Both the position numbers and the translations under genes were made by a program. Below the pieces are notes generated by a model, which had not been told where the DNA came from, made no database searches, and was given only the letters and a program-made list of their open reading frames with translations. DNA of 64,000 nucleotides from Candidatus Rifleibacteriota bacterium (GTDB taxonomy: Bacteria; Muiribacteriota; Ozemobacteria; Ozemobacterales; Ozemobacteraceae): the NCBI GenBank assembly GCA_012520995.1, contig JAAYNI010000033.1:128826-192825 (forward strand), written 5' to 3'. Numbering within the stretch: position 1 is the first letter of the stretch; each line of letters starts with the position of its first letter. Of this stretch, positions 25,576 through 63,566 are shown piece by piece.

Positions 25576-25600
25576 CAGATTCTTTCTTTTGTCAATGAAA

Positions 25601-46978: not shown

Positions 46979-48148
46979 ATGACTTATAAAATAAGCGTGC
47001 AAAGATGCTTCTCTTACGAACAGGAAGAGGTTAGAGAGGCTTTAATTAAAATGCTTGAGCCCCTGGGAGGCATGGAATCCTACGTTAAAAAAGGAGCCAA
47101 AGTTCTGGTCAAGCCGAATATGCTTTCCCGTAAAGACCCGAGCAGAGCTGCTACGACTCACCCTTCGATTATAGCCGAGGTCGTGAAACTCTGTTATGCC
47201 GCTGGGGCATCTCATGTGAAAGTGGGCGATAGTCCCCCCGAAATTTTCGGATTGGCAGAGGACTTTTGGAAAATTACCGGATTTAAGAAGGCTTGTGAAG
47301 ATTCGGGAGCAGAACTTATTGAGTTTGAAAAAGATGAAAAAGTTCCAGTGACCTTTAGAACCGGCGGAAAAGAAGTGACGGCTTATGTCGTTAAAAGTCT
47401 TTTTGAAGCTGATTGTGTCATAAATCTTCCTAAGATGAAAACCCACAATCTTACTCGAATAACAGGAGCCACTAAAAATTTGTTCGGTTTGATTCCGGGG
47501 TTTGCAAAAGGAATGTGGCACAAGGCTATTCCTCGTGCAGAACAGTTTGCGGAGTTTATAGCGGATTACGCAAGAGAGTTGCCCATCACTCTTAGCATAA
47601 TGGATGCGATAGAAGCTATGGATTCCCAAGGACCAGCTAGCGGCAGAGTTGTCAGGCCAGGCCTTTTATACGGCGGAGCTCCTGTTACAGCAGTAGACTA
47701 CGCTTTTTGCAAAATAGCCGGTTTGAATCCAGCCAAGGTGCACATGTTGGACTATACGGCCAAGATCGGTTTTGGTCCTTCAAGCATGGATGATATAGAA
47801 TTTGTGGGCATTCCTATAGAGGAAGCTGTTATGGAAGAATACAAAGTGCCTATGGCGTCGCCTATGCACCTGATTCCGGAATGGGTTCTGAATATTGCCA
47901 AAAAACTTTTGTGGACAGGCCCTGTTTTGAAAGAGGGCAAATGTGTGAAATGCGGCAGATGTAAAAAAATATGCCCAGTGCATGCTATTGAAATAACTCA
48001 AGCTGACGGTGCTCTTTTCGACAGAGAAAAGTGCATTTCCTGTTTCTGTTGTATGGAAGTTTGCCCAGCAGAGGCTATAGAGGCTCAACCTAGTCCTGCT
48101 GTTACAGTTTTTGTTAAACTTGTTAAAAGGCTCTTGAGATATAAATGA
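46979..48148 (+). CDS. DUF362-domain protein fused to 2x[4Fe-4S] ferredoxin domain
   Basis: N-terminal GAKVLVKPNMLSR... (typical DUF362). C-terminal CVKCGRCKKICPVHAIE ... CISCFCCMEVCPAEAIE. Confidence 0.65.
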   Translation: MTYKISVQRCFSYEQEEVREALIKMLEPLGGMESYVKKGAKVLVKPNMLSRKDPSRAATTHPSIIAEVVKLCYAAGASHVKVGDSPPEIFGLAEDFWKITGFKKACEDSGAELIEFEKDEKVPVTFRTGGKEVTAYVVKSLFEADCVINLPKMKTHNLTRITGATKNLFGLIPGFAKGMWHKAIPRAEQFAEFIADYARELPITLSIMDAIEAMDSQGPASGRVVRPGLLYGGAPVTAVDYAFCKIAGLNPAKVHMLDYTAKIGFGPSSMDDIEFVGIPIEEAVMEEYKVPMASPMHLIPEWVLNIAKKLLWTGPVLKEGKCVKCGRCKKICPVHAIEITQADGALFDREKCISCFCCMEVCPAEAIEAQPSPAVTVFVKLVKRLLRYK

Positions 48149-49116
48149 ATAAAATAACTCATTTTTTTCGAGATATAGCACAGAAGCTGTTTGTGGAAAT
48201 CCTGAAGGTTATTGCTGCTTTTTTGCCAAAAACTTCTTATAAGAAGAAACGCAAGGCAGCTATTCTCTTTATCAGATTTCTGAAGCCTTTCAAATTTGCC
48301 AGATTCGATTATGTAAAAAAAGAAATAACTTTTTCCTTGCAACTCTCCGAAGAAAAGGCTTTGCAAATGACTGAAAAGGTCTATGTGCAACAGCTTTTGA
48401 ATGCTATGGAGATGATGCAGCTAGCTACTCTTTCTTTGGATGAACTGGCAAACAAAATTAAACCTGTTAACTTTCACTATCTTGAAGAGGCTTATAAGAA
48501 ATATGGTTCAGTGATACTGGTTTCTCTCCACTATGGCCTTTGGGAATATATTCCCCCTTGGATGGCTTACAAAGGCTATACAGTTAATTCATTTGCCAAA
48601 AGGATCGCCAATCCCTATATTAATAAATGGATTACTGAGTTGCGCACTAAGCATGGCAGCAAGATTATTGTTTCAAAGTATGCAATGAAAGAGGGCTACA
48701 GAGCCTTAAAAAAAGGCGAAATCTTGGGACTTGTTTCAGATCAAAGGGTCAGAGGTTCCACAGGAGTTTTCGTGAAATTCTTTGAGCGCTGGTGCCCAGC
48801 ACCTCTAGGTCCAGCTGCTATTTCTTTGAAAAGTAACATTCCTATAATTTTAGGGCTGACGCATCCTGAGCACGAAACAGGGCAGCATATTGTGGAATTT
48901 TATGAGCCAATATTGCCTGAAAACTATACAAAAGATACAATTGGGCAGTATGCAATTACACAGAAATACTGCGATTTTTTTGAAAAAGTAATACGTGAGC
49001 GCCCGGAAAACTGGTTTTGGTTCCATAAACGCTGGAAAATAAAACCGGAAGATTTTCCGGATAACGTTTGGGTAAAAGAACTGGGACTTTTAAACGTGGA
49101 GAAAAAAGATGGCTGA
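48145..49116 (+). CDS. lipid A biosynthesis late acyltransferase (LpxL/HtrB family, LPLAT superfamily)
   Basis: LVSLHYGLWEY (H-x4-E acyltransferase motif). The overall size and adjacency to waaA support the call. Confidence 0.7.
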   Translation: MNKITHFFRDIAQKLFVEILKVIAAFLPKTSYKKKRKAAILFIRFLKPFKFARFDYVKKEITFSLQLSEEKALQMTEKVYVQQLLNAMEMMQLATLSLDELANKIKPVNFHYLEEAYKKYGSVILVSLHYGLWEYIPPWMAYKGYTVNSFAKRIANPYINKWITELRTKHGSKIIVSKYAMKEGYRALKKGEILGLVSDQRVRGSTGVFVKFFERWCPAPLGPAAISLKSNIPIILGLTHPEHETGQHIVEFYEPILPENYTKDTIGQYAITQKYCDFFEKVIRERPENWFWFHKRWKIKPEDFPDNVWVKELGLLNVEKKDG

Positions 49117-50377
49117 AAACTTGGCATTTAAGATTTATAAAACCATCCTTAGAGTAATTTTGGAAGTTTTTTCCTTTTTCCCTGAGCGAATTTCCGAACA
49201 TGAAGAAGTAATATTGCGAAAAGGTTTAGTTCCGGATGGTTTTCTCCCCCATCCGAAAGGTATGATATGGCTTCATGGAGCATCAGTAGGTGAAGTTCAG
49301 ACTTTGATGCCTTTTATAAGATTACTGAATGATAAGTATGGACGCGAAAGGCTTGTGACTACAGCTACAACAATAGATGGTCTTAAGTTGTTGCAAAAGT
49401 CCGAAACCTCGGCTTTTTCAAGTCTTTTACCATTCGATTTGCCTGAATATTACAATTTCTTTATAGAAAAAATAAAGCCGTCTCTTCTTCTTATCTCTGA
49501 AACAGAAATTTGGCCTATGTTGCTGCATTATGCCGCTAAAAAAAATATTCCAGCAGGCTTAATAAATGCGAGAATTAACACTAAATCAGTCAGGATGATG
49601 AGCATGTTTAAAGGTCTTTTTAGACCTGTTCTCAAGGAACTCTCATTTGTATTTCCGCAAAATAATAACTACTATAGACGTTTCAAGATACTTGGCGTGC
49701 CAGAAGAAAAAATGAAAATAATGGGGAGCTTCAAATATGATGCTATTTCGGATGATGCTTGTCCGGAAGCTTTTCGTGAGAAATATGCGATACCGCAAGA
49801 ACGTCCTATAATCTGTTTTGGCAGTACCCATCCTGGGGAAGAAGAAATTATAGCGGCAGCCCTTAAGGAAATTTTAAAATATCATCCAGAGTTGATTGCT
49901 ATTGTAGCTGTAAGACATTTACGAAGAATTCACGAAGCAGAAAAAACTTTTAGTGATTATCAAATACCTTATCAGAAAGCTTCAGAACGTAAAGAAATAA
50001 CAGAGCCTTTATTTCTCTTGGACACTATAGGTGAGCTTAAATCAGCTTATGCTACATCTTCTCTGGCTTTTGTCGGAGGAAGCTTGATAGAGCGAGGCGG
50101 GCATAATATTATGGAACCTGCTCTTTTTGCGAAACCTGTGGTTACTGGCCCTTCTCTGTTTAACTTTGCTTCGGAGAGGCGCACTTTGAGCAAAGATAAA
50201 GCTCTTTTTATAGTTCATGACGAACTGGAGTTGGCAGCATTAATTAAGGACTCTCTACAAAATCCTCAAGTCTACAAAGAAGCGGGAAAAAGAGGAGCGG
50301 CTGCATTGAAAAAAATGAGGGGAGCGTCCCTTGCTACTTTTGAAGAACTTGAAAATTGCGGGTATTTAGAGCTTTGA
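49109..50377 (+). CDS. waaA: 3-deoxy-D-manno-octulosonic acid (Kdo) transferase WaaA/KdtA
   Basis: MIWLHGASVGEVQTLMPFI is the KdtA N-terminal signature. The GT-B C-terminal half reads (FVGGSLIERGGHNIMEPALFAKPVVTGP). Confidence 0.8.
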   Translation: MAENLAFKIYKTILRVILEVFSFFPERISEHEEVILRKGLVPDGFLPHPKGMIWLHGASVGEVQTLMPFIRLLNDKYGRERLVTTATTIDGLKLLQKSETSAFSSLLPFDLPEYYNFFIEKIKPSLLLISETEIWPMLLHYAAKKNIPAGLINARINTKSVRMMSMFKGLFRPVLKELSFVFPQNNNYYRRFKILGVPEEKMKIMGSFKYDAISDDACPEAFREKYAIPQERPIICFGSTHPGEEEIIAAALKEILKYHPELIAIVAVRHLRRIHEAEKTFSDYQIPYQKASERKEITEPLFLLDTIGELKSAYATSSLAFVGGSLIERGGHNIMEPALFAKPVVTGPSLFNFASERRTLSKDKALFIVHDELELAALIKDSLQNPQVYKEAGKRGAAALKKMRGASLATFEELENCGYLEL

Positions 50378-51351
50378 GCGGCGAACATATAGTAATTAGG
50401 TTCAGCGCCATGGGAGATATACTTTTGACTCTCCCTGCTTTATTGGGTTTGCAGCAAAAACACGGGCAAAAACCCATATTAGTGACAGGCTCAAAATGGC
50501 AGGCTTTAAAACCATTTTTGCCTGCTAATGTTAAGATCTTGCAAAAGAAAACAGATCTGCTTTTTATGGCCAAAGAGCTAAAGCGAAATAAACCAAAATC
50601 TGTTTTCGAGTTGCAGGGCAAAATTATTTCATTAGCTCTTGCCTCTATGATAGCAGCGCCTCAGACTGAAATATATAAAAAGAGGAACTTAAAAGAGCAG
50701 TTTCAGGCTATTTCGAAGCGTTTTCCTATAAAGCTTTCAGACCCTCGGCCAGTCTGGAAAAAATATGCCGAGGTTTGCGGAGTAGAACCGCTGTGTCCTG
50801 AGAAGCTCTTGGTTTTTCCTGAAGATTACGAAGAGCAAACATATAAACTTCTTGAAAAGTGCCACTTAGAGCCTAATAAATATATCTTGATACATCCATT
50901 TGCTTCCAAGCCTGGCAAGGTTTTGCCAGATTCTTTGGTTGAAAGCTTAATCGAAAGATCTCCTCTTCCAGTAGTTATTATGGGAGTATCTGATTTAGAG
51001 CCGAAGATAAAAGCCGATTATTTAGATTTCAGAAACAGCTTTTCACTTAATGAGCTGCCAGGTATTATGATGAATGCGGCTGCTGTTATAAGCAGCGATT
51101 CTGGCCCTATGCACCTTGCAAGAGCAGTAGGTGTGCCTCTGGCTGCTGTCTTTTTGCAGACAGATCCGGCTTTGGGGTTTTCACCTGTTGAAAGTCCTAA
51201 TAATCTTGTGCTCTCTGAGCCTCTTCCTTGTAAACCCTGTTCTTTGCATGGCGGCAACAGTCTTTGTCCCCTTGGGCACTTTGATTGCAGAAAAGTCGAT
51301 GAAAAAGCCTATGCCGACAAAATATTTGAATTTCTGGATAAATTTCTGTGA
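50356..51351 (+). CDS. glycosyltransferase family 9 (ADP-heptose:LPS heptosyltransferase-like) #1
   Basis: IVIRFSAMGDILLTLPALLGL is the GT9 N-terminus. C-terminal DSGPMHLARAVGVPLAAVF. TTG start 50356 overlaps the waaA end; the exact start is uncertain. Confidence 0.7.
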   Translation: MRVFRALSGEHIVIRFSAMGDILLTLPALLGLQQKHGQKPILVTGSKWQALKPFLPANVKILQKKTDLLFMAKELKRNKPKSVFELQGKIISLALASMIAAPQTEIYKKRNLKEQFQAISKRFPIKLSDPRPVWKKYAEVCGVEPLCPEKLLVFPEDYEEQTYKLLEKCHLEPNKYILIHPFASKPGKVLPDSLVESLIERSPLPVVIMGVSDLEPKIKADYLDFRNSFSLNELPGIMMNAAAVISSDSGPMHLARAVGVPLAAVFLQTDPALGFSPVESPNNLVLSEPLPCKPCSLHGGNSLCPLGHFDCRKVDEKAYADKIFEFLDKFL

Positions 51352-52358
51352 AAAAAATAGCTGTAATTGGTGTTAATTGGCTAGGTGACGTTGTTATGAC
51401 ATTGCCGGCATTGGAGATTTTGTGTTCCTGCTTTGATGTTGATGTGATAACTCGTCCGAACCTTGCGGAAGTCTATCGTTTGTCAGGTTTGCCTGTTAAT
51501 ATTAAACCTTTTGACAACAAGGGTGATCTTGAAAAAATTCTTTCTGGCATAAAAAGACTGCGAAAGACCTCGTATGAAGCTTGTGTTATTTTTCCGGATT
51601 CTTTGAGAGCAGGCGTAACGGGCAAGTTTCTTAAAAGCAAAAAAAATATAGCTTTTAATGTGCAGGGCAGGGGACTTTTTGACAAAAAACTTTTAAACAA
51701 ACCAGCGGATTTTAAAAAAATACATGAGTCTGAGTTATACAAAATGCTGGCAGCCGAGGCATGTGAAAATATGTCTTATATTAGGCTTCCTGAAAGAGAA
51801 CGGGCTTTTTCACCTGAATTTGAAGAATTTACAATAAAAAAATATTCTCTTGAAAGAAAACAATATGCGGTTTTAGCACCAGGAGCAGCTTTTGGAGCGG
51901 CAAAAAGATGGCCTGCCGAGTATTTTGCAGAGCTGGCTGGAAAAATTCTGGAAAATACCTCCTGTCTTCCTGTAATTACAGCAGGAAAAAGCGAGATTGA
52001 AATAGCAAGATCAGTTGTTTCCTGCTATGAAGACAAAGTTCTTAACTTAGCTGGAAAAACGAATCTTAAAGAGTTGGCGTGCATACTTAAAAATGCGGCA
52101 GTTCTCGTGGCTAATGATTCGGGCACAATGCACCTGGCTTCACTCTTTTCTGTGCCCACGATAGTGCCAGTCGGTCCTACGGATATGACTAGAACCTCGG
52201 CTTTGAATAGGAACTTTAAAGCTATAATAGCAGATAACTGTGAGTTGATTCCATGCAGAAAGCCTGTGTGCCCTAAAAACACAAATGCATGTATGAAATC
52301 TATTAGCCCTGCAGAGGTTTATGAAGTATTTTTGTCATTTTTGGCAAAAAATAAATAA
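51348..52358 (+). CDS. glycosyltransferase family 9 heptosyltransferase-like #2
   Basis: KIAVIGVNWLGDVVMTLPALEIL and NDSGTMHLASLFSVPTIV. GTG start overlapping the upstream stop (GTGA). Confidence 0.75.
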   Translation: MKKIAVIGVNWLGDVVMTLPALEILCSCFDVDVITRPNLAEVYRLSGLPVNIKPFDNKGDLEKILSGIKRLRKTSYEACVIFPDSLRAGVTGKFLKSKKNIAFNVQGRGLFDKKLLNKPADFKKIHESELYKMLAAEACENMSYIRLPERERAFSPEFEEFTIKKYSLERKQYAVLAPGAAFGAAKRWPAEYFAELAGKILENTSCLPVITAGKSEIEIARSVVSCYEDKVLNLAGKTNLKELACILKNAAVLVANDSGTMHLASLFSVPTIVPVGPTDMTRTSALNRNFKAIIADNCELIPCRKPVCPKNTNACMKSISPAEVYEVFLSFLAKNK

Positions 52359-52440
52359 ATGATGTAGATATTGTAGAAAAAAATGTATATTATGATTTGT
52401 GCACCGAATAGGGGCATCTAATTATTATCCGGATATAAAA

Positions 52441-53463
52441 ATGGTTCAAAAACGCTTCTTGATAGCGCGCACTGACAGGCTGGGCGACGCTCTTTTAACT
52501 TTGCCAGTGGCAAGAGAGTTGAAACGTGCTTTTCCAGACTCTTCTGTAACGGTTCTTTTGCGCCGTTATACTCAGCCATTGGCACAACTTTGCGAGTGTA
52601 TTGATGAAGTTTTGTGCGATGATGATTTTAAGCCCGGCTTTTTAAGCAAAAAGCTTACCGATGAGCTACGTAGAGGTTCTTATGATTGTGCTTTTATAGC
52701 TCATCCTGCACCTAGGGTTTTGCTAAGCTCTTATTTCGCTGGTATACCTAAGAGAGTAGGACGTGCGTCAAATGTGTTTCAATTTCTTCTTTCCGACAAG
52801 AGACATCAGAAGCGTTCTCAAAACAAACAACACGAATATATGTATAACCTTGATTTGCTAGAAGGCACGGTAGAGCAAATAGACAGAACTCCCATGAGGT
52901 TGAAGCTTACGCCTTCTTTGGAAGAATATGCTTTGAAAATGAGGAAAAGTCTTGGTTTTAACCCGGCAAATACAATTATTATTCATCCAGGGCACGGCGG
53001 ATCAGCTTTAAACCTGTCTCCAAGAGCTTATGCTGAGATAGCATCAGCTCTTAGCCCTGATATGACTGTGCTTGTCTCTGTTGGACCAGGCGAAACTTCT
53101 GTTAAAAGCAGTTTTGAGCCTAATAAAAATTTAATTTTTGCCGAAAATATACCTGATGCCGCACATTTGGCTGCGGTATTTTCTGATTGTTTGGCTTTTG
53201 TTGGAGGTTCTACAGGACCTATGCACTTGGCTGCGGCTCTTGGTATACCCTGTCATGTGTTTTTTCCTCCAGTGAAAGCTATGACACCTGTCCGATGGGG
53301 ACCGCAAAGTGAAAAAAGCAGAGTTTACATGCCAGAACTTGAAGCCTGCGATGGACTTTGTGATAAATGTCCTGATAATGGATGTATGGATACAATAGAT
53401 CTGAATAAAATAATACCGATTATTAAAGAGGAAGCAGGGAAGAGAGCTTCATCTTTAAGCTGA
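52441..53463 (+). CDS. glycosyltransferase family 9 heptosyltransferase-like #3
   Basis: MVQKRFLIARTDRLGDALLTLPVAREL and GGSTGPMHLAAALGIPCHVFF. Start chosen at MVQKRF; the ORF track starts 14 codons earlier at 52399. Confidence 0.75.
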   Translation: MVQKRFLIARTDRLGDALLTLPVARELKRAFPDSSVTVLLRRYTQPLAQLCECIDEVLCDDDFKPGFLSKKLTDELRRGSYDCAFIAHPAPRVLLSSYFAGIPKRVGRASNVFQFLLSDKRHQKRSQNKQHEYMYNLDLLEGTVEQIDRTPMRLKLTPSLEEYALKMRKSLGFNPANTIIIHPGHGGSALNLSPRAYAEIASALSPDMTVLVSVGPGETSVKSSFEPNKNLIFAENIPDAAHLAAVFSDCLAFVGGSTGPMHLAAALGIPCHVFFPPVKAMTPVRWGPQSEKSRVYMPELEACDGLCDKCPDNGCMDTIDLNKIIPIIKEEAGKRASSLS

Positions 53464-53496
53464 CTTGAAAGCGGGATATTGTAACGGGAGACGAAA

Positions 53497-56400
53497 ATGA
53501 GGAACGACAAACGAATTGCTGGAATAGGAATAAACTTCGGAAAGGCATTGCTATGCTTGCTGACGTTATTTTTAATAGTTTCAGTGTCAGCTGATGCGGC
53601 CATTTCAAGGCCGCAAGTAATTCTTTCTGCTGACCAAAACGGAGACGGGATTGCAGGGGTGGGGGACACAATTACCTTTACCTGCACTTCTGATGCAGAT
53701 CCAGTAGACGATGTGTATGTGACAGTAGCTGATGCTATAGGTTTTTCCAGACTGACTATGCAGGAAATGGGAAACAACCTGTATAGCGTAAACTATACTA
53801 TACGTCCCGGTAACATTAACAAACACGTTCTTTTTGCGTTTGTCGATCATTCCTCTTCCGTAAACGTTACTACCAGCTTTCTTGTTAACAGCATAATTCC
53901 CGCGTCTACCTATCAACCTGCCGTTTCGGGGTATACCGGTCCAGGCCGGACTTTCCGCTATGGCGATACCCTGACCGTTACTCACAATCTCACAACAGGT
54001 TATGACAGTTCAACTATAATGGAACTTGACCTGTCCCCCATCAATTTGGGGGTGGTTAGGATGGGAAAAAGCGGTTCATCTTTTACGACTGAGATACGCA
54101 TTCCGTCAGGTTTGAAGCTTTCTGATACCAGCTTGAGAGCTGTTGCGACAAATGCTAATGGCAACTCTCAAGAATGGTATTCACAGCCATTTGCGGTTGA
54201 TACTCAGCCGCCGGTTATTCTTAATGCCCGTGTTCAGAATACCACTCAAAATGGTAATACAGGCTGGGCTATAATCAATGATACTTTGCGTATTACTGCT
54301 TCTGTAGAGCGTTATGAGAATGACATTCTTCTGGTTGATTGTCCTCATTTGTTTTCAGGCGGACCTCGGCACATGGACTATGTGGGCTCTGATGCAGATA
54401 TTGGCAACTTTTCATTAGAGGTTGTTCTTGATGATGTTGCCTTGCAAGGCCGGACTCTTGCTTTTAATATTATGGCAAGAGATGAGGCAACCAACCGTGG
54501 TTATGCCTCTACAAATACAATAAGAGTGGATACTCTGCCTCCCAGCTTTTCTTCTTTGTCAGTAATCATAAGAAAACCTGACGGTTCTACAGGCAATACG
54601 GCTATTGTCGGAGATATAATTCGCATAGAAGGCTCTATGGCTACTGTTATGCCTGATATAACTCTTACTGTCGATTTTACAGAGCTGGGCGGTTCTTCGG
54701 CTCATATAATTCCTTTTACGGATGGAAGTGTTGCTCCAAATGTATCGGTAAGAACCTTCAGAACAGATTTTATGGTGACAAGAGGCGAACTTGAGAACAC
54801 AACGCCTCTTTCCTTCAACGTTACAGCTACAGATGTGGCGGGCAATACTATCCAGAGAGTAGCTATGCCCGCTGTATATGTAGACAACAAACCTCCAGTT
54901 ATTAGTTCTGCTACTTTTGCAAATATTACTAACCCCGGAGAGCCTGTAAAATTTGGCGATCAAATATCTGTATCAGCTACGGTTGCAGATATAGATGATG
55001 GAGAAGTTTACATAGATCTTAGATTTTTGGGCGGAGCTCAAAAGGCTCTTTTAAATAAGGTTGGTTCCAATCAGTTTATGCTCAACCATAGAGTGGGCAA
55101 ATCTATTGATCCTTTGGAGCCCAATTTTATTGACAGACCTTTAGCTTTTAATGTTATTGCAGTAGACGATGCGGGCAATAAACATGAAATGCAGACAAAC
55201 AGTTTACAAGTTGACTCAGAAGCTCCTGATATTCTTTCAGTTGAGTATGTGGTTCAACCTCCTTTGTCTGAAACCAGGAGATATATAAAGGCTGGCGATT
55301 ATCTTACTTTAAAAGTGAAATTGGCCAAATCCGAATCTTCTGTTTATGACGGTCAAACTGTCATTATGGATCTTACAGATCTGGGTGGTGAAGCAAATCA
55401 GGCTCTGAACTATATGGGCGGCTACTATACATTTTCTATGGTGGTGCGCCAAGGGCAGATAGACTTTGGTTCTACCTTCAGAGCAACTGCGACTGACAAT
55501 GACGGCAACACTGACAGCGGTTATATTCATCTTCCCTTGGATAACAAAGGACCTCTGACAGGTCCCTTGAGTGTCAGGTTTCTTGCAGACAGAACTACTC
55601 AAGGCGTTATAAATATAGGCGATGAAATAGAAATCACTATTCCAGTAGATGATGGCCATGACGAAGGTTATGCAACTATAGATCTTTCGCTTGTAGGGGG
55701 CGCAAGCGACCATGTTATTAATTATATGGATTATAATGATCCTAAGAAGAGCTACATTATCAGAATGGTTTGCTCTGAAGCAGCTACAGCTGACCCTGCG
55801 TATGTCTTCAGCGCTGTAGTTTATGATAAAGCAGGCAACAAGATGTCCAGCTTGTCTCAGCCCATAAAAGTGGATTGTCGAAAGCCCGTTGTGGACACCT
55901 TTGAAGCTATTCACATCAAGAGAGCGGGAAATCCTGGCGTGGTGAACGTAGGCGATGACTTGAAGTTTACCGCTGAAGTTGATGATAGCGCTGAAGAAGG
56001 TCTTATACCTACATTGAACCTTTTGAAGGTGGGCGGAAGTGCCAGACAAGAAATGGAAGATGCCGGAGACGGCACCTTCACTTATACTCACAGAGTTGTC
56101 GCGGGTGAAACAGATGGCGAAGATGTAAAGTTCAAGCTTACATTCAAAAATTCGGCCGGCAATATCGCTGACACGCCTAATATTTATTCCCGTTCTTTCT
56201 TTGTAGACAACTGTCCTATAAACATAACTGAAATTTCCTATGTGTTGCTGGAAGATACCAATGGCAATAACATAGTTGACTTGGACGGAAGCTACACAGA
56301 TGTTCCTGTTTCAGCTCCTGACAAAGTAAGCCTCTCAATGCGGCTTTCTGCCAGCGGGCAGCTTACAGCAGATTTGAGCAAATTCGGCTATGGCACTACA

Positions 56401-59400
56401 GCAACTCCTTTGAACATTATTGATGATGTCAGCGGAGAAACTTCAGAGCTTGTTTTTGAAGTTAAACAGGGCACAGTAAATGGCGAAGATGTGAAAATCA
56501 AATTGAGAGCCGTTGATGAAAACGGCAACGTTTCAGTATTTGAAACTCCCAACACGCTTCGTTTGGATAACCGTCCGCCTGAAGTCGGTGTACCTGAAAT
56601 AATAATTGAAACCGACAATGGAGTTATAGGGGAAGCTAATGCCGGAGATGTTTTGAAAATCCGCGCAGTTGTTAAAAATAATGATGGCCTTCCCCCGCTC
56701 TTGATATTCAATAAACTGGTTCAAGCGCATCCTCCCGGAGTTCAGCTGCCTTCTGATATCATTATGGCGGAAGTTCCCGCCAAACCGGATCTTTATGAGG
56801 CGGAATGGGTTGTTCCTACAGGTTTGAGTGCCAAAGCCCCTCTGACTGTATTGTCTACTGACAAATCAGGCAATACTGTTTATAGAGATTCTTTGCCCAT
56901 GAGGTTTCTCTCTAAGGATATTACTCCTCTAGGCGGAACTGTCTCTTTGTTCTATGACGCAAACGCCAACGGAATAATAAACCCTGGCGATCAGGTAAGA
57001 ATAACCTATTCATTGGAAGATGTTTATTCTATGCCCAACAATTCTCCCATAACCAATGTTTATGTTGACGTTTCTCCTTTGACAAGTCTTATGGGCGGAC
57101 CTGTTCCTGATCCGGAAAACCCTGATGCCTATTGGGCAAAGCTTAGATATGACTACAACAACACTGGTTCTCCTTATGTCTATGAAGAAATCTTTACGGC
57201 TTCGGAAACAATAACTCTGGACAGAGGTGCTGATACCGATTCTTGGATCTTTAAAGTCAGAATTATGCACCCTGATGGAACAAACAAAACTACCAAGAGA
57301 GATACAATCGAGTGTACTTTCCCGATAGATACGAAAGTTCCGAATATTATTCCTAACAGTTTGCAGATCAGAATTGTTGAGGACAATGATGATAATCCTG
57401 ATATAACTACTGCAAATATTAACGACATAATAGAAGTTCAGGCTGAAATCAAAAACTATCCTGACTCTGATACTACCGTGGCTACTTTGTTCATGGGCAC
57501 TGCCAATGAAGTAATGCATCGTATTCCTCTGACACAGATAACGGGCACCGAAATCTGGCAGGGGCAAACTACTATAGCTACTGGCACCAGGCTTATGGGG
57601 CAGCCTCTCTATGACGGCGATTGGCGCATCGCAAATGGCGACATAGCCAGAATGATTGTGCACGCAACAGACGATGCAGGCAACACTAAAGCTTCTCATG
57701 CAACTCCCTATAAACCTGAAAACGCAATCAAAATAGACAATAAGCCGCCTGTTTTCTCAAAAGTTCAGATTTTTTCTGGCGAAAACAACGATGAACCTTG
57801 GGTTGTCAATGTAGGCAACGGTTTGGCCACTGATACTTTGCAATTCGGCGTTACATTGGGTGAAATTGTCTATGCTGACCTTTATAACAATAGGGGCAAG
57901 GCTTGGGTTGATTTGGCGCAAATAGGCATAGATGAGCCCTATTATCTGAAGCCTGGAACATCGACAGGCATCGGAAACACTATTGTTTTCGGAACAGATC
58001 CTAATACTTATTTCCCCGCTGACTTTGCTCCATTTGTCATAAAAACTGAAATAGACTTGGCTACCTATACCTTCCCCATTTGGGTTCAAGATGAGGCAGG
58101 CAACAAAGACAAGAGGATTGACCACTCTCAGCGCATTGCTATAGACACTTCCTCGCCTAAGCTTGTCAGAGCTGAATATGATGGCATGATGTTGACTTTG
58201 AAGTTTAGCGAAATAGTCAGACAAGACACTTTCAATATTAACAATATAAGAATTGGTAAGCAGTATAATGTGACTGATTATTATATTAATAATGGGCAGG
58301 CAATCAAACTGAGCGATGACAGTTCTGATCCGGCTGTTTGCGATATAATCATGCCTCTCTCAGATTCAGACACATACAATATTCTGATTTGTCCTGTAAA
58401 CAGAGGCAAAATAGCTGATTGGGGTAATACATCTCTTTATGTTTCAATAGCTTCTCAAGACACTGATCCCGGACACAACCGCTATGATGTAAATGGATAT
58501 CTTGGCAAAGATGAGGCTGGCAACTGGCTGCAGCCTGTTATGAGAAATGAACCTGCAGACGTTGTTGTAACTGAGGAATATATCGTAAGACCTAATCTTG
58601 TAAATGCCTATTATAATGCTGCAGGAACGATTGAAGACCAATCATATCTTTATCTTGAATTTGACAGAGAAATGGATCTCACCAGTATTACTCCTGCTTC
58701 AATTAACAGGTTGGCTATTTGGAGAGACCCTGCATTTACTGCAGAAAACTGGAATATACGTTACCGAATGCGTTCAGGTTTTGATACCTTTGATATGAGT
58801 GACGCTTATAACTCAACCAATGGTTTAAAACGCCTTAGAATCAGACTTTCTCAAGAAGCTCAAGACTGGCTGGCGCTTGTTTATGGCAAAAATTCAGAGA
58901 AGTTGCATGTTCAGATAGACGGCTATCTCTTTGAACCTCAGCCGTATCCAGCTTCACAGCCTCCGTTGGCTCGAGATATTTACGGTAACAGAGTTAATCC
59001 TATACGTCCTAAAGATGCTCTCGAAGGCAGGATATATCCTCTTACGACAAAGTTCGCTGTCAGTGCAGGTATTACACTTGACTTGACAGGCGACAAGCCT
59101 ATGCTGGTAATACCTTTTGAAAACAGGCGTGTAAAGCTTTTCCAAGATACTTATACGGCAAGTTCGCTGAATATTCCAAAGAATACTCCTGTTGACTTGT
59201 CGAAGGTTTACATCTGGTCTTCATCAGGAACTTCTTCGGCTCAATATATAGGTCTTGGAGCCAAAGGCACTTCGCCTGCTATGGTAGATTGGGATTCCTT
59301 GACTTACGGTTTCAGCAATATAAACTCTTTCGCATCTCCGGTTGTGAATATTGCTTTGACAGAAGAAGCTTTGAACACAATGCTTAGCTGGGGAACTTCC

Positions 59401-62400
59401 GAGTTTTATATACGTTGTGAAACAGAAGCTTTCAGAGATCTGTGGGGCAATAGTAACGAACCTTACCCGAATGCCGGAGGCATTGCGGCTATGATTAATA
59501 CAGTCAAGCCTTCTTCTGTTACTCAGCCTCCTTCGGTTAGAACCTTAGCAGTCAAACCTGTTTCAAACGAATATGCTCTTTTCAAGGGACAGCCCGAGGG
59601 GCAGTTCTTCTATGAAGTAGCTTTTGATACGCCAAGCTTGACTCAAGGCGTGACAGTTCCTATAGCTCGCAATTTAGTTCCGACTCTTGAACTTTTTGTC
59701 GATGATGGAACCTTCAAAGTGGTAGACAGACCCAAATTCCTGGGATGGACAGAGCATGATCAGAATGGCACTGTGAGAACAGTTGCTCAGTTTAGCAACA
59801 CCAGTCTCTCAACTATGGGTTCTGAACAACGTGTGCCTGTCATTGCCAGGATTTCAAACTATACCGACATATTCAATCTTGCCAATCCTGTAAACAATAC
59901 CTTGGTAAGCAAGGCTTATAACTTGGATAAGAAGATTGAAGGCAATATAGGCTCTTATGATGGATTCAAGGTAGCAAGCTGGAGCATGGAGTTTGACAAC
60001 TGTCCTCCTAGCCCGATTCAGGCAGCTGCCAGAATTAACAATGAACCTATAGTGAATAATATAGTTCCCAATATACCTGAAGGTCATCTCAAAGTAAAAA
60101 TCAAGTTCAACGAAGCGATGAACAATAGCAACAGCACTACTTTGAGACCCAGATTGCTCTTGGTTACACCAAGCGGTGACAGAGTTATGCAGTTCAATTG
60201 GGTAAGATGGGAAAGTCCAGATACAGCAGAATTCATGAATCAGTCTCCATTTGATGGCAATATAATTCAAGGCAAGGCTTATTTCAGTGTTTCGGGCGGC
60301 TATGACGAAGCCGGCAATCCTTGTCCGGAAGGTCATGTCATGGATGATATCTATTTTGTGGATATAAGATCTCAGGGACCTGTAGTTGAAAAATTTATGG
60401 TTCAGACTTTGCAGACGACCACGGCAAACTCTGAGTTTGATTACTCGATTGATATGCCTTACAGCCCCAAGATAAGTTCGGATTACAATAATCCATACAA
60501 CTTGCCTGGTATAGCTACTATCAAGATATATTTCCAGAAACCTCCGGTTGATAACACTGGCACTCTGCAAATATGCAATTTGTCTGGCGGCAGCATAATA
60601 AAAGAATTGCCCGCTGTGCCTTCTGATACTGGCAACGAATGGATTGTTAAATGGGATGGAACTAAGGCTGATGGCACTGAAATCCAGTCCAACTATCCGG
60701 TTCTTTATGATCTTAAATTCGTAGATTCAGCTGGAAATATTGCTAATAGAGTAGGGCGAATTGTTTATGATAACAATCCTCCGCCTGTCACATCATGGGA
60801 ATTCCCTGAATTGCAATACAGAGACAATGTTGTGTATTACAGCCCTGATGTTCATTCTACGACTAAGTTCAATGTGATTACCGGGCAGCTTGGCGAGCCT
60901 ATGCGTCTTTTGTTGCAGAAAGAAGGCGAAGAACGCAAATATGTCTATGACATGTCCGCCTATGCGTCTATGGGCTATACTCTCAACTTCTCTGGCCAGG
61001 TTCCAGGTTCTGCGGCTTATCTCACAGGCGAATATAAGGCAAGCTTGGTTGATGCGGCTGGCAATCTGGGTGTTCCCGCTTTCTCCGGCGGACAAGCAGG
61101 CTTTACTCTGATGATAGACAGGAATCCTCCTGTTCTGACTCAGGTAAAAACTGAAAAAATAGCTAAATCAACCGGCTCTTTAGTGAGTCCTTACCCATTA
61201 GGCGAAGTTGATAGATTCAACGCTAATAAAAATGATCTTATGATCACTGTTGTTGAAGCTGTTGTGCCTGGCGAAAAACCCTTAGATGAAGGCACAGGCC
61301 TAATAAAGATAATGTCCGGCTCTACGGTTATGAGAGAACTTCCCTTGTTGAAGTCCTCAAGTAATGACATATACGCTATATGGGATGGCAAGAACTCTGA
61401 CGGAATCTTGGTTCCTGACGGCCGATATGTAATTAAAGTTGCAGACTTGGCTGGCAATGAAGCGGCTATGATGAAAGAAATCTATGTTGTGGCTACTTTG
61501 TTCAGCTTTGAAAGAGTTGAACAGGATGGCATTAACAAGATAAAGATGTTCTTTACCCACGAAGTGCATCCTTCTGGAGCCAATCCTTCAAAGTTTGCTA
61601 TAACTGGCGGTTTGTCTTTCGCAACTGTAGTAAAAGATGAAACTGACAAGACTTTGCTGACGGGCACTTTGGCTTCTCCCATGACCCTTGAACATCACGG
61701 TACGGAAGTGGTTGTTAAGGCTATAAATCTTATAAGCATTGATGAAGCGGAATTGAGCGCTGTAAATTCGGCAAGCTTTATACCTGACACTAAGGGGCCT
61801 GAAATAAAGAATGTAAACTTTGAAGGTCTGACTGTTCCTAATGCATTCAATATTGTCTTTGATGAAAGGGTTGATCCGACAAGTGTAGTCGACAAGACTA
61901 AATACACTCTTACAGTTCAGAATAGCGGCGGTATTACTCTTCCGATAAAATCGGTAGGACTACAGCATGAAAACAAATCTGTAATAGTGATGACGGAACA
62001 GAAACTTGATGTCGGCAGTTTTTATGTGGTTTCAATTACTGGAGCAAAAGACTTGAAGGGCAATGTGAGCAATCCAGTTTCCCAGCCTTTCGAAGGAATA
62101 GACGTTACGCCTCCTGAATTTATTATATCGGCTTTCAGCAACCCTGCTAACGAGTTTGATATTATAGTTACGGTTAAAGCCAATGAAGAGCTTAAGAGTG
62201 ATCCTCCGGTTAAAGCCTATATAAGGCAGATTGGCGGAAAACTGATTACAGCTTCTATGAATACGACCAACTATCCAAATATGTATATGATAGGCGTGCA
62301 TCTTGATCCTAACCACTCAGGTATAGTTAACATCAAAGTTACGGGTGAAGATCTTAGCGGTAACGAAGGCAGTGCGGAATATGTCTTCACCACTGCGTAT

Positions 62401-63483
62401 ATTAATGCTTCCATGAGAGCATCTGTAATCTCCGATGACGAGATCCTTACTGCTTTCTTTGAACCTGGCACTCTCAGGGAAAACTCAAAAGTCATGCTTT
62501 TCAGGGACTCTGTTTCTGTTACTTTGCCAGAAAGCGGTGAAGTCAGATCTTCTATAAGACTTTCAGTTGCTGAAGGACTCAAAGATCTCTCAGGTTTGCC
62601 TAATAGTGTTGCCAAATCTGTAACCCCATCACTTCAGGGAGACGAGTTGAAACCTGTAGCAGATTCTTACAGTTTCTCGGTCCCTGAGGGCAGATTGCAG
62701 ACAGCCGTGCCATTTACTATGAAACTTGCTTCCAGCACTTTGGAGAGTTCGGTAAATCTCTACAGAAATGTGGCTGACAAGTGGGAATTGGTGGAAACAG
62801 AACAGATAGATGGCAATCAGCTCAAATTCTATTCTGAAACCTCAGCAAGATTTGCCTTAATGAGAGATACTATGGCTCCGAGAGTTTCTATCAGAAACAG
62901 CTTTGCTCAGCCGATTAAAGAAGAGCGCCCCACGTTTATCTTCGCAGTAGAAGAATTTGGTTCGGGTCTTGACAGAGAGAGCGTAAGAATTACACTTGAT
63001 AATAGGAGTTATACTCCTGTTGTTAGCGATGATGCTACTCGCTTGCTCTTTAAGCCCTTTGACGGTCTTGTCGGCGGCACTCACACTGTGGGTATAAGAG
63101 CCTCTGACCGTGCAGGAAATCAGGTTGTCTTCCAGGAAGTAAGGTTCCAGCTTGCTCCTCCTTTGCGCATTAAGCAAGTAGTTCAGTATCCTAACCCTGC
63201 AAGCTCCTATGTCAAGATTCGTGTGGATACTAACAGTTCACTTATTGATGATGTGACTGTAAAGATCTATGACACTTCAGGGCAACTGGTTACTGATTAC
63301 GTGAAAGATGACGGAACACCAGATCTGAAAGCCCAAGGTGTGCACGAATATCGCTGGGATTTGAGAAATAAATCAGGCAGACGTGTAGCCAACGGCGTTT
63401 ACATTGCAAAAATCGAAGTTAGAGATCCATACGATTGGAATAAAAAATATAAATACACTCAAAAAATCGCAGTTCTCAGATAA
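53497..63483 (+). CDS. giant (3,328 aa) secreted multi-Ig-domain surface protein with C-terminal T9SS type-A sorting domain
   Basis: Signal peptide (ALLCLLTLFLIVSVSADA). At least 10 repeats begin with (V/I/L)D(N/T/S)xxP(x)(I/V) and are about 100-aa beta-rich units of Big_3-like Ig type. Internal FlgD-Ig-like modules read TIKIYFQKPPVDNTGTLQICNLSGG...WDGTKADG... and GLIKIMSGSTVMREL...WDGKNSDGILVPDGRYVIKV. The final about 90 aa read VVQYPNPASSYVKIRVDTNSSLIDDVTVKIYDTSGQLV...GVHEYRWDLRNKSGRRVANGVYIAKIEV...QKIAVLR. These match the T9SS CTD pattern. GGGAG Shine-Dalgarno. The gene lies 33 nt after the upstream GT9 gene. Confidence 0.8.
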   Translation: MRNDKRIAGIGINFGKALLCLLTLFLIVSVSADAAISRPQVILSADQNGDGIAGVGDTITFTCTSDADPVDDVYVTVADAIGFSRLTMQEMGNNLYSVNYTIRPGNINKHVLFAFVDHSSSVNVTTSFLVNSIIPASTYQPAVSGYTGPGRTFRYGDTLTVTHNLTTGYDSSTIMELDLSPINLGVVRMGKSGSSFTTEIRIPSGLKLSDTSLRAVATNANGNSQEWYSQPFAVDTQPPVILNARVQNTTQNGNTGWAIINDTLRITASVERYENDILLVDCPHLFSGGPRHMDYVGSDADIGNFSLEVVLDDVALQGRTLAFNIMARDEATNRGYASTNTIRVDTLPPSFSSLSVIIRKPDGSTGNTAIVGDIIRIEGSMATVMPDITLTVDFTELGGSSAHIIPFTDGSVAPNVSVRTFRTDFMVTRGELENTTPLSFNVTATDVAGNTIQRVAMPAVYVDNKPPVISSATFANITNPGEPVKFGDQISVSATVADIDDGEVYIDLRFLGGAQKALLNKVGSNQFMLNHRVGKSIDPLEPNFIDRPLAFNVIAVDDAGNKHEMQTNSLQVDSEAPDILSVEYVVQPPLSETRRYIKAGDYLTLKVKLAKSESSVYDGQTVIMDLTDLGGEANQALNYMGGYYTFSMVVRQGQIDFGSTFRATATDNDGNTDSGYIHLPLDNKGPLTGPLSVRFLADRTTQGVINIGDEIEITIPVDDGHDEGYATIDLSLVGGASDHVINYMDYNDPKKSYIIRMVCSEAATADPAYVFSAVVYDKAGNKMSSLSQPIKVDCRKPVVDTFEAIHIKRAGNPGVVNVGDDLKFTAEVDDSAEEGLIPTLNLLKVGGSARQEMEDAGDGTFTYTHRVVAGETDGEDVKFKLTFKNSAGNIADTPNIYSRSFFVDNCPINITEISYVLLEDTNGNNIVDLDGSYTDVPVSAPDKVSLSMRLSASGQLTADLSKFGYGTTATPLNIIDDVSGETSELVFEVKQGTVNGEDVKIKLRAVDENGNVSVFETPNTLRLDNRPPEVGVPEIIIETDNGVIGEANAGDVLKIRAVVKNNDGLPPLLIFNKLVQAHPPGVQLPSDIIMAEVPAKPDLYEAEWVVPTGLSAKAPLTVLSTDKSGNTVYRDSLPMRFLSKDITPLGGTVSLFYDANANGIINPGDQVRITYSLEDVYSMPNNSPITNVYVDVSPLTSLMGGPVPDPENPDAYWAKLRYDYNNTGSPYVYEEIFTASETITLDRGADTDSWIFKVRIMHPDGTNKTTKRDTIECTFPIDTKVPNIIPNSLQIRIVEDNDDNPDITTANINDIIEVQAEIKNYPDSDTTVATLFMGTANEVMHRIPLTQITGTEIWQGQTTIATGTRLMGQPLYDGDWRIANGDIARMIVHATDDAGNTKASHATPYKPENAIKIDNKPPVFSKVQIFSGENNDEPWVVNVGNGLATDTLQFGVTLGEIVYADLYNNRGKAWVDLAQIGIDEPYYLKPGTSTGIGNTIVFGTDPNTYFPADFAPFVIKTEIDLATYTFPIWVQDEAGNKDKRIDHSQRIAIDTSSPKLVRAEYDGMMLTLKFSEIVRQDTFNINNIRIGKQYNVTDYYINNGQAIKLSDDSSDPAVCDIIMPLSDSDTYNILICPVNRGKIADWGNTSLYVSIASQDTDPGHNRYDVNGYLGKDEAGNWLQPVMRNEPADVVVTEEYIVRPNLVNAYYNAAGTIEDQSYLYLEFDREMDLTSITPASINRLAIWRDPAFTAENWNIRYRMRSGFDTFDMSDAYNSTNGLKRLRIRLSQEAQDWLALVYGKNSEKLHVQIDGYLFEPQPYPASQPPLARDIYGNRVNPIRPKDALEGRIYPLTTKFAVSAGITLDLTGDKPMLVIPFENRRVKLFQDTYTASSLNIPKNTPVDLSKVYIWSSSGTSSAQYIGLGAKGTSPAMVDWDSLTYGFSNINSFASPVVNIALTEEALNTMLSWGTSEFYIRCETEAFRDLWGNSNEPYPNAGGIAAMINTVKPSSVTQPPSVRTLAVKPVSNEYALFKGQPEGQFFYEVAFDTPSLTQGVTVPIARNLVPTLELFVDDGTFKVVDRPKFLGWTEHDQNGTVRTVAQFSNTSLSTMGSEQRVPVIARISNYTDIFNLANPVNNTLVSKAYNLDKKIEGNIGSYDGFKVASWSMEFDNCPPSPIQAAARINNEPIVNNIVPNIPEGHLKVKIKFNEAMNNSNSTTLRPRLLLVTPSGDRVMQFNWVRWESPDTAEFMNQSPFDGNIIQGKAYFSVSGGYDEAGNPCPEGHVMDDIYFVDIRSQGPVVEKFMVQTLQTTTANSEFDYSIDMPYSPKISSDYNNPYNLPGIATIKIYFQKPPVDNTGTLQICNLSGGSIIKELPAVPSDTGNEWIVKWDGTKADGTEIQSNYPVLYDLKFVDSAGNIANRVGRIVYDNNPPPVTSWEFPELQYRDNVVYYSPDVHSTTKFNVITGQLGEPMRLLLQKEGEERKYVYDMSAYASMGYTLNFSGQVPGSAAYLTGEYKASLVDAAGNLGVPAFSGGQAGFTLMIDRNPPVLTQVKTEKIAKSTGSLVSPYPLGEVDRFNANKNDLMITVVEAVVPGEKPLDEGTGLIKIMSGSTVMRELPLLKSSSNDIYAIWDGKNSDGILVPDGRYVIKVADLAGNEAAMMKEIYVVATLFSFERVEQDGINKIKMFFTHEVHPSGANPSKFAITGGLSFATVVKDETDKTLLTGTLASPMTLEHHGTEVVVKAINLISIDEAELSAVNSASFIPDTKGPEIKNVNFEGLTVPNAFNIVFDERVDPTSVVDKTKYTLTVQNSGGITLPIKSVGLQHENKSVIVMTEQKLDVGSFYVVSITGAKDLKGNVSNPVSQPFEGIDVTPPEFIISAFSNPANEFDIIVTVKANEELKSDPPVKAYIRQIGGKLITASMNTTNYPNMYMIGVHLDPNHSGIVNIKVTGEDLSGNEGSAEYVFTTAYINASMRASVISDDEILTAFFEPGTLRENSKVMLFRDSVSVTLPESGEVRSSIRLSVAEGLKDLSGLPNSVAKSVTPSLQGDELKPVADSYSFSVPEGRLQTAVPFTMKLASSTLESSVNLYRNVADKWELVETEQIDGNQLKFYSETSARFALMRDTMAPRVSIRNSFAQPIKEERPTFIFAVEEFGSGLDRESVRITLDNRSYTPVVSDDATRLLFKPFDGLVGGTHTVGIRASDRAGNQVVFQEVRFQLAPPLRIKQVVQYPNPASSYVKIRVDTNSSLIDDVTVKIYDTSGQLVTDYVKDDGTPDLKAQGVHEYRWDLRNKSGRRVANGVYIAKIEVRDPYDWNKKYKYTQKIAVLR

Positions 63484-63500
63484 AAACTTCGGTTAAAGTT

Positions 63501-63566
63501 AAAAAACAAGCTCCTGTGTCCGATATTTCTCAGGAATACAAAAGAAGACAGCACAGGAGCTTTTTT
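63501..63566 (+). terminator. rho-independent terminator after the giant gene
   Basis: CAAGCTCCTGTG (63507-63518) pairs with CACAGGAGCTT (63553-63563), followed by T6 (63561-63566). There is extended imperfect pairing inside the loop. Confidence 0.55.

Follow-up and report, generated by a model that had tools for sequence, protein, structure and literature searches.

We examined a 64,000-nucleotide (nt) stretch of a Candidatus Rifleibacteriota metagenome-assembled genome (MAG; assembly GCA_012520995.1, contig JAAYNI010000033.1, positions 128,826 to 192,825; hereafter, the window), which encodes a giant surface protein of 3,328 amino acids (aa) on its forward strand (53497..63483, with an ATG start and a TAA stop at 63481-63483). 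Taken by itself, the giant is an ordinary kind of object, a large surface protein of immunoglobulin (Ig)-like repeats. Comparison with related loci indicates that its gene is the first of a phylum-wide cassette, in which it is followed by genes for a tetratricopeptide repeat (TPR) lipoprotein of ~240 aa and a FadL-like barrel of the PorV/PorQ family. The exact protein is deposited as NLM16995.1, a 'hypothetical protein' from a Candidatus Riflebacteria MAG, and is also encoded on 13 metagenome contigs, biogas fermenters among them. In the NCBI taxonomy, Candidatus Rifleibacteriota is listed with the 'Bacteria candidate phyla' and does not belong to the Fibrobacterota-Chlorobiota-Bacteroidota (FCB) group. 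The host is a diderm, because BamA is encoded in the window.

The N-terminus (MRNDKRIAGIGINFGKALLCLLTLFLIVSVSADAA) resembles a Sec signal peptide, and an earlier note on this DNA had already read it as one. The probable signal (aa 1-34; 53497..53598, +) has a basic n-region, a hydrophobic core (ALLCLLTLFLIVSV), and an ADA-A site. It leads into a chain of Ig-like beta-sandwich modules, of which the earlier note had counted at least 10. A profile built from five of them detects 13 contiguous modules (aa 34-1547; 53596..58137, +), eight of which were outside the training set. The VD-type PxI boundaries described earlier are also present, in the form of a (V/I)DxxxPx(I/V) linker that opens or ends each of the 13. 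Self-BLAST of the giant found no internal repeats; the Ig-like modules are therefore old and highly diverged. We used AlphaFold2 (AF2) to model aa 236-800 from a 13-sequence alignment of orthologues and paralogues, and obtained five consecutive beta-sandwiches with a mean predicted local distance difference test score (pLDDT) of 88. Foldseek paired this model with chains of tandem Ig-like domains; the best extended match was a fragment of GhpA, the grappling-hook protein of Aureispira (9flw_A, TMq 0.37), followed by the Ig domains of PrgB and the extender of MpIBP (4p99). The Ig-like fold of the repeats thus bears out the architecture first read from the letters.

No curated Pfam family scored above its cutoff on these 13 N-terminal modules, for which Big_3_2 and Big_13 scores were sub-threshold. 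The search for Big-family domains suggested by the earlier note was therefore only partly rewarded, with two passing matches closer to the C-terminus: Big_5 at aa 2778-2862 (61828..62082, +; PF13205, 31-34.6 bits, cutoff 23.6) and Big_13 just before the tail, at aa 3142-3210 (62920..63126, +; PF19077, 40.3 bits, cutoff 27). The central region (aa 1548-2324; 58138..60468, +) has no Pfam or NCBIfam match above cutoff. A search with the central 895 aa found only two homologues in a 5.8-billion-cluster database, both of them partial proteins from the Rifle-aquifer bin ACD_39; judged by homology, this region is lineage-restricted. Single-sequence AF2 of aa 2311-3328 gave no usable model (pLDDT 32). 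The whole chain probably comprises ~25-30 beta-sandwich modules: the 13 Ig-like modules, then lineage-specific modules, Big_5, Big_13, and two FlgD-Ig modules.

Two internal modules resembling FlgD-Ig and the terminal domain had been proposed from the sequence, and profile-profile comparison upholds both. Module 1 (aa 2325-2432; 60469..60792, +) and module 2 (aa 2560-2668; 61174..61500, +) are homologous to the C-terminal domain (CTD) of the giant (hhalign, 91.8%, E = 7e-7 and 96.6%, E = 5e-10, respectively) and to each other (97.9%), with control modules at ≤6.4% in the same comparison. The suggested kinship of these modules with the fold of the tail is thereby confirmed. In Pfam, module 2 scores 22.5 bits for FlgD_ig, below cutoff, and module 1 has no match.

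The CTD itself (aa 3224-3328; 63166..63480, +) ends in ...KIAVLR at the stop codon and belongs to the superfamily of type IX secretion system (T9SS) type-A CTDs and FlgD-Ig domains. The earlier note had called it a type-A T9SS tail. At the level of the superfamily, this assignment stands: scored alone, the tail passes both Por_Secre_tail (31.7-33.7 bits) and FlgD_ig (34-35 bits) at their cutoff of 27. In the whole protein, however, FlgD_ig (PF13860) reaches 49 bits while Por_Secre_tail (PF18962) stops at 24.5, below cutoff, and TIGR04183 falls short of its cutoff of 23 either way (20.8 for the whole protein, 19.8 for the tail alone). Among NCBIfam models, aa 3169-3326 (Big_13 plus tail) align with the C-terminal ~155 positions of NF033707, the model for PorU (67 bits), and the tail aligns with the end of the PorZ model (39 bits). 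A five-sequence tail profile gave the same neighbors in the PDB, where its best match was the CTD of Porphyromonas gingivalis PorU (6ZA2, residues 1056-1153 of 1156, E = 8e-11); the CTD of PorZ was also found (5M11, residues 671-757 of 758), and FlgD was matched only partially (E ~0.1). By these comparisons, the tail is a strictly C-terminal member of the superfamily and stands on the border between the Pfam families FlgD_ig and Por_Secre_tail. It resembles T9SS CTDs more closely than it does FlgD and does not reach the NCBI type-A model.

The position of the tail is as telling as its relatives. With the tail alone as query, a word-indexed search retrieved no more than four fragments. An exhaustive HMMER search with the tail profile returned 38,682 representative proteins. 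Among the best 150 of these 38,682, a match that extends through to the profile end is found at the very C-terminus in 86 of 87 cases, single-copy matches are terminal in 54 of 55, and 36 proteins of the terminal class are at least 3,000 aa long. In a second class, exemplified by a protein of Acetivibrio cellulolyticus, there are 5-15 internal copies, which are confined to the core of the profile and lack the terminal strand. When 38 terminal tails of the family were scored, 31 matched Por_Secre_tail, 28 matched FlgD_ig, and 12 matched the type-B CHU_C model. The named giants of the terminal class all come from Riflebacteria or Ozemobacteraceae MAGs; one member of the P0045 cluster is labelled Erysipelotrichia. 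The tail thus appears to behave as a terminal sorting or anchoring domain. Note that a CTD at the extreme C-terminus together with a putative N-terminal Sec signal is also the layout of T9SS type-A proteins.

A gene of 230-264 aa lies directly 3' of the giant in each riflebacterial context that we examined. In the window, this partner is a lipoprotein of 238 aa with the lipobox ALNGC, a GRxxxP motif, a Gly-rich linker, and the sequence EAYNGLGW; its gene begins at 63568 (+) and runs past the end of the window at 64000 (full gene, L001:20072-20788; L numbers are our locus labels and P numbers our protein labels). The earlier note had overlooked this partner. Seven such downstream proteins are homologous to one another, sharing a lipobox that ends in GC, the GRxxxP motif, a Gly/Thr-rich linker, EAYNGLGW, TPRs, and weak similarity to BamD. 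The product is a TPR lipoprotein, which ruled out a PorP/SprF or PorV barrel at this position in the window. When one genome per species was scanned with a sequence pattern, the partner family turned up in 15 loci of reference genomes. Their labels are mostly Riflebacteria or Ozemobacteraceae, with four 'uncultured bacterium', one 'bacterium ADurb.Bin157', and two 'Avigastranaerophilus'. All 14 loci that could be tested have a giant with a full-length CTD at its end directly 5' of the partner, with -1 to 84 nt between the two genes. Within this comparison, the conserved unit is the giant plus the ~240-aa TPR lipoprotein.

Several observations accompany this family. The same 483-kb contig carries a second cassette, ~7-20 kb to the left of window position 1 and on the opposite strand, whose giant, P0177 (4,311 aa; NLM16939.1, GX221_04410; L008:10001-23730), has a tail of the same type and is followed, with a 1-nt overlap, by a partner-family lipoprotein of 264 aa. 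The two loci labelled Candidatus Avigastranaerophilus sp. (L017 and L021; JAZRWI010000111.1 and JAZUDR010000056.1) carry the riflebacterial cassette, and their labels likely reflect mis-binning or mislabelling. Beyond the right end of the window (L001:20873-28964), the partner is directly followed by an S41 CtpB-like C-terminal processing protease with a PDZ domain, and then by N-methyl pilin-like genes, an MshE-type T2SSE ATPase, and PilM. The S41 protease was considered as a tail-processing enzyme and rejected, as it is missing from other cassette contexts.

Giant and partner are separated by a hairpin (63508..63566, +), in which 63508-63519 pairs with 63551-63562 to form a 12-bp stem around a loop of ~31 nt (dG -21 kcal/mol, z = -3.1). 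The consensus terminator scan missed it because of this long loop. The earlier note had taken it for the strong terminator that closes the transcription unit. A hairpin followed by a run of six T residues (63561-63566) is indeed present; however, the run occurs in this species only, and the 3' arm contains the AGGAG Shine-Dalgarno (SD) sequence of the partner (63555-63559), eight nt before its ATG. Seven related loci have a hairpin in the same spacer, with a core CUCCGA...UCGGAG in which an anti-SD pairs with the SD and no T-tract follows. Compensatory changes occur in 7 of 11 pairs, and 88.6% of the hairpin cells are paired, compared with 78.5 ± 2.6% in shuffles (0 of 500 reach the observed value) and 33-49% in slid-strand controls. 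Since it sits between the giant and its conserved partner, the 'terminator' does not close the unit. The conserved element more likely serves in the control of partner translation or in transcript processing.

The first clue to a third component was P0028, an S8-protease giant with the same type of tail, whose stop codon overlaps a gene matching NF033709 (109.9 bits, cutoff 90). The named relatives of this barrel are from Margulisbacteria and Saganbacteria, on which ground we rejected L006, the contig that carries it, as riflebacterial; the contig is probably from Margulisbacteria. At L006:10001-20868, this 1.77-Mb contig encodes this S8-protease giant of 3,289 aa with FlgD-Ig arrays and an internal type-B CTD-like segment, and the giant/barrel pair belongs to an island that has ParB, SSB, and integrase genes on its flanks. 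Among Riflebacteria, a search with a barrel profile located a homologue immediately behind the TPR lipoprotein gene in each of six loci, four of which are confirmed by NF033709 (123-134 bits against a cutoff of 90). Scanning metagenomes with the riflebacterial barrels then gave ~30 loci in the order giant with CTD, TPR lipoprotein, barrel, as well as a lower-GC group in which the barrel stands alone.

One of these stand-alone loci, with the GC content of the window, encodes a 320-aa barrel of which an exact match is encoded on ERZ773356 NODE_3 (L106:10001-10963), the contig of the window. The host of the giant therefore has a PorV/PorQ-family barrel of its own (NF033709, 124 bits, cutoff 90). 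It is below the cutoffs of both equivalog models, scoring 36 for PorV (NF033710, cutoff 250) and 58 for PorQ (NF033711, cutoff 220), and the barrels also match BamG weakly. Its neighbors are FecR-like, STAS, shikimate dehydrogenase (aroE), MshE-type T2SSE, second T2SSE, and ComGC-like pilin genes. The STAS, aroE, and T2SSE genes are the same that come after the cassette in the Ozemobacteraceae locus L009. These shared flanking genes suggest that the three-gene order is ancestral and that the cassettes moved off the barrel in the low-GC clade, to which the host belongs. The barrel block also holds proteins of 572 and 579 aa, and the barrel is recurrently associated with type IV pilus or type II secretion system (T2SS)-like genes.

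Upstream, the giant lies behind genes for the lipopolysaccharide (LPS) core, which are as the earlier note described them: an LpxL-like acyltransferase (48145-49116), KdtA (49109-50377), and three glycosyltransferase family 9 (GT9) genes (50374-51351, 51348-52358, and 52441-53463), all called on the forward strand with Pfam matches. A DUF5693/pyruvyl-transferase fusion, asd, and a DUF362 ferredoxin protein are encoded further upstream; the strand is the same throughout, and the genes overlap or are separated by short gaps. The junction with the third GT9 gene, GT9-3, is exactly the 33 nt reported earlier (53464..53496, +), between the GT9-3 stop at 53463 and the ATG of the giant, with a GGGAG SD (53486-53490) six nt before that ATG. 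The lack of a terminator in this gap is corroborated as well, for the consensus scan found no terminator-like site in 53464-53496 and the gap forms no stable structure (z = -0.95). With only 33 nt available 5' of the giant, its transcription starts within or upstream of GT9-3. Read-through from GT9-3 in this species is plausible on these grounds, and so is a promoter inside GT9-3, the last 150 nt of which contain two weak promoter-like sites (9 of 12 positions each). In addition, the 82-nt AT-rich gap before GT9-3 (52359-52440) contains promoter-like hexamers (TAGATA-17-TATTAT, 52365-52393), so the proposed ~20-kb unit may be subdivided.

This arrangement is not conserved. P0026, a full-length orthologue of the giant (41% identity over 3,386 columns; L010), comes after another cassette-like pair; its own upstream region is 268 nt long, AT-rich, and includes a terminator as well as repeats of the palindrome GTGCAC. 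The region (L010:6248-6514) contains a perfect hairpin plus T-run, CCGTGCACAA...TTGTGCACGG TTTTTTTT; two further GTGCAC palindromes precede the P0026 start codon and may be an operator-like repeat. P0184 (L009), a putative orthologue, likewise comes after another cassette. In five related species (L011, L012, L013, L014, and L017), giant and partner are followed by homologues of the window genes 39029(-) and 40185(-, 67% identity), and in the two loci that reach far enough (L013 and L014), homologues of 41592(+), DUF5693, and asd come next. The cassette is thus at the opposite end of the gene block in L011-L014 and L017; in the window, it comes after the GT9 genes. Paralogues of the giant adjoin unrelated genes. 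The four window genes concerned, at 39029-39904(-), 40185-41477(-), 41610-42341(+), and 42322-42825(+), are conserved genes without a Pfam or NCBIfam match, which directly follow the cassette in related species.

Without GT9-giant adjacency in orthologues and related loci, the junction is a local, species-specific, and derived rearrangement. The same strand, short gap, and absence of an intervening terminator are features of an operon; conservation of the gene order in relatives is not found. Hence, the earlier proposal of a ~20-kb transcription unit that couples LPS-core assembly to the giant is not supported as a conserved coupling: the adjacency is missing from orthologues, from five related species, and from paralogues, and comparison of these loci indicates no conserved functional link between LPS-core synthesis and the giant. 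More generally, gene adjacency in a single genome is poor ground for proposing functional coupling.

How, then, might such a protein reach and stay at the cell surface? In P. gingivalis, PorV and PorQ keep PorU and PorZ attached to the cell surface, and PorV binds CTD-bearing substrates (Glew et al. 2017; PMC5562754). Our tail is closest to the CTDs of PorU and PorZ, and the cassette is tied to a PorV/PorQ-family barrel; docking is therefore the best explanation. With moderate confidence, and by analogy with these complexes, we propose that the giant is displayed at the surface through docking of its tail onto the PorV/PorQ-like barrel and that it serves as a surface fibril or adhesin. The giant would be exported by Sec, after which its CTD would be recognized by the barrel and remain docked, tethering the Ig chain at the surface much as the uncleaved CTDs of PorU and PorZ sit on PorV and PorQ. 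The TPR lipoprotein could be a dedicated assembly or holding factor in the periplasm or at the outer membrane, and the anti-SD hairpin may limit translation of the partner relative to that of the giant. The position behind the LPS-core operon would be a by-product of local rearrangement, perhaps with read-through. An independent case points the same way, namely, the giant of probable Margulisbacteria origin that has the same tail type and overlaps a PorV-family gene.

Several points weigh against docking. In the host itself, the barrel gene lies ~145 kb from the giant gene on the same contig, so that it is from sister lineages that their linkage is inferred here. Barrels of the PorV/PorQ family (UPF0164/FadL-like) may also exist in bacteria without a T9SS, for example in treponemes, and membership of the family alone is therefore no proof of CTD handling. 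A partner-family lipoprotein at L010:5471-6244 is the sole exception to the rule of the cassette, coming after a protein of 1,699 aa without a detectable CTD; this protein (L010:158-5257) has no family match and no similarity to P0177. Passage of a 350-kDa giant across the outer membrane would call for a translocon, and the label 'adhesin' is a guess from architecture, no binding domain having been identified.

The strongest competitor is the model of the earlier note, in which the giant is canonical T9SS cargo: a complete T9SS would export it through SprA/Sov, PorU would cleave it, anionic LPS would anchor it, and co-transcription with the LPS operon would couple synthesis of the anchor to that of the cargo. 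The tail resembles T9SS CTDs and alone passes PF18962, the genome also encodes a PorV/PorQ-family barrel, and the giant follows a GT9 gene on the same strand after 33 nt with no terminator-like site between them and without the separate upstream region found in its orthologue. However, TIGR04183 (20.8 against 23) and whole-protein PF18962 stay below cutoff, the barrel is below the PorV and PorQ equivalog cutoffs, and the LPS adjacency is missing in orthologues and paralogues. The closest CTDs, those of PorU and PorZ, also stay on their proteins after secretion. No gene for SprA/Sov, PorK/L/M/N, or PorU was seen in ~125 kb of the contig or among large open reading frames (ORFs) near cassettes, a small sample. 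These large ORFs in riflebacterial loci encode Mfd, cardiolipin-synthase-like, sulfatase-like, and regulator proteins and two proteins without a family match; the PorV/PorQ-family barrel was the only T9SS-related component found. Moreover, the phylum lies outside the FCB superphylum, to which the T9SS is described as unique (PMC12421860, PMC12398890), and we found no literature linking Riflebacteria or Margulisbacteria to the T9SS or PorV. We therefore regard canonical cargo as unlikely. What survives of the earlier picture of a Sec-exported surface protein with a T9SS tail is the giant Ig chain and the superfamily of its CTD; in a phylum outside the FCB group, it is at most putative T9SS cargo.

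Less probable still is a self-contained system akin to two-partner secretion, in which barrel and TPR lipoprotein would both move and hold the giant without a T9SS translocon or motor. The tight and recurrent three-gene order would fit such a system, as would the weak similarities of the lipoprotein to BamD and of the barrel to BamG and the lack of any other T9SS gene in the neighborhoods examined. Yet there is no precedent for a FadL-like barrel that exports a polypeptide of >3,000 aa, a T9SS core may be present elsewhere in these genomes, and the barrel gene of the host is not linked to either of its cassettes. That the tail is a purely structural FlgD-Ig sandwich, with the giant periplasmic or else exported or retained by another route such as the nearby type IV pilus/T2SS-like genes, is very unlikely. 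In favor of this reading, FlgD_ig is the top-scoring Pfam family (49 bits), the fold recurs twice inside the giant and in arrays of 5-15 copies elsewhere, including Acetivibrio cellulolyticus, and both here and in L009 the cassette has T2SSE, PilM, and pilin genes on its downstream side. Against it, among the best 150 of the 38,682 matches the full-length form with its last strand is terminal in 86 of 87 and internal copies are truncated, the tail is closer to the CTDs of PorU and PorZ than to FlgD, and CTD-bearing giants recur beside PorV-family barrels in two phyla.

Docking onto the barrel may be compared with several known systems. The type-A cargo of the Bacteroidota T9SS (TIGR04183/PF18962, e.g., GhpA) likewise combines a Sec signal, a large modular passenger, and a terminal beta-sandwich of ~100 aa, and the tail of the giant shares its YPNP...IYD..G..V...WD..N..G..VA.GVY...K.AVLR features; the giant differs in a host outside the FCB group, a TIGR04183 score below cutoff, and a T9SS core that is at best putative. 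To our knowledge, a dedicated TPR lipoprotein that is always paired with the cargo, as in the cassette of the giant, is not a feature of the T9SS. The PorU-PorV and PorZ-PorQ pairs of the P. gingivalis attachment complex provide the closest CTDs and share the NF033709 barrel, and the CTDs of PorU and PorZ are retained after secretion. Here, in contrast, the passenger is an Ig chain and not a C25 sortase or a beta-propeller LPS carrier, the riflebacterial barrel is below the PorV/PorQ equivalog cutoffs, and the interaction is inferred.

In the SprB-SprF pairs of Flavobacterium, cargo with a type-B CTD is encoded just upstream of the gene for its cognate PorP/SprF-like outer-membrane protein. 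The resemblance lies in a giant repetitive surface protein followed by a gene for a dedicated small envelope partner; the riflebacterial partner, however, is a TPR lipoprotein and not a PorP/SprF barrel, and the tail is like type-A CTDs and FlgD-Ig. Proteins with tandem FlgD Ig-like domains (PF13860; e.g., WP_010245240.1 of Acetivibrio cellulolyticus) have the same fold, of which the giant has two internal copies. Their copies are internal, lack the terminal strand, and also occur in monoderms without an outer membrane, whereas the full-length copy of the giant is C-terminal. Repeats-in-toxin (RTX) adhesins of the Ca2+-stabilized MpIBP/LapA type are similar in their size of >3,000 aa and their long chain of Ig-like extender modules. 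They differ in terminal domain and partner genes, and Pfam and NCBIfam scans of the giant found neither RTX repeats nor the C-terminal signal of type I secretion systems.

A CTD-bearing giant, a TPR lipoprotein, and a PorV/PorQ-family barrel thus seem to form a conserved and previously undescribed cassette outside the known range of the T9SS. The T9SS and its CTDs are regarded as a hallmark of Bacteroidota and the FCB group, and both CTD giants and a PorV/PorQ barrel occur here outside that lineage. If these phyla have a full T9SS, its known range is extended; if the pairing of CTD and barrel is an independent surface-anchoring module, it bears on the origin of the T9SS attachment complex. Tentatively, and as a possibility to which we give less than even chances, Riflebacteria and probably Margulisbacteria may have a minimal CTD-docking module (giant and PorV/PorQ-family barrel, with the TPR lipoprotein in Riflebacteria) without the T9SS translocon or motor, which would be a free-standing relative or precursor of that complex. 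Regardless, docking provides a function-level hypothesis for the 'hypothetical proteins' of 3,000-4,600 aa in anaerobic digester and rumen metagenomes.

Rfam and tRNA scans of the window gave no matches. On the reverse strand (23722-27994), a DnaB-family helicase of 797 aa with an N-terminal extension of ~275 aa scores below every equivalog cutoff, the phage DnaB model included, and is followed by a 639-aa protein without a family match. The run of envelope-biogenesis genes is headed by the fusion of DUF5693 with a polysaccharide pyruvyl transferase (PS_pyruv_trans; 1,041 aa; 42822-45947, +), which adjoins asd in related species too.

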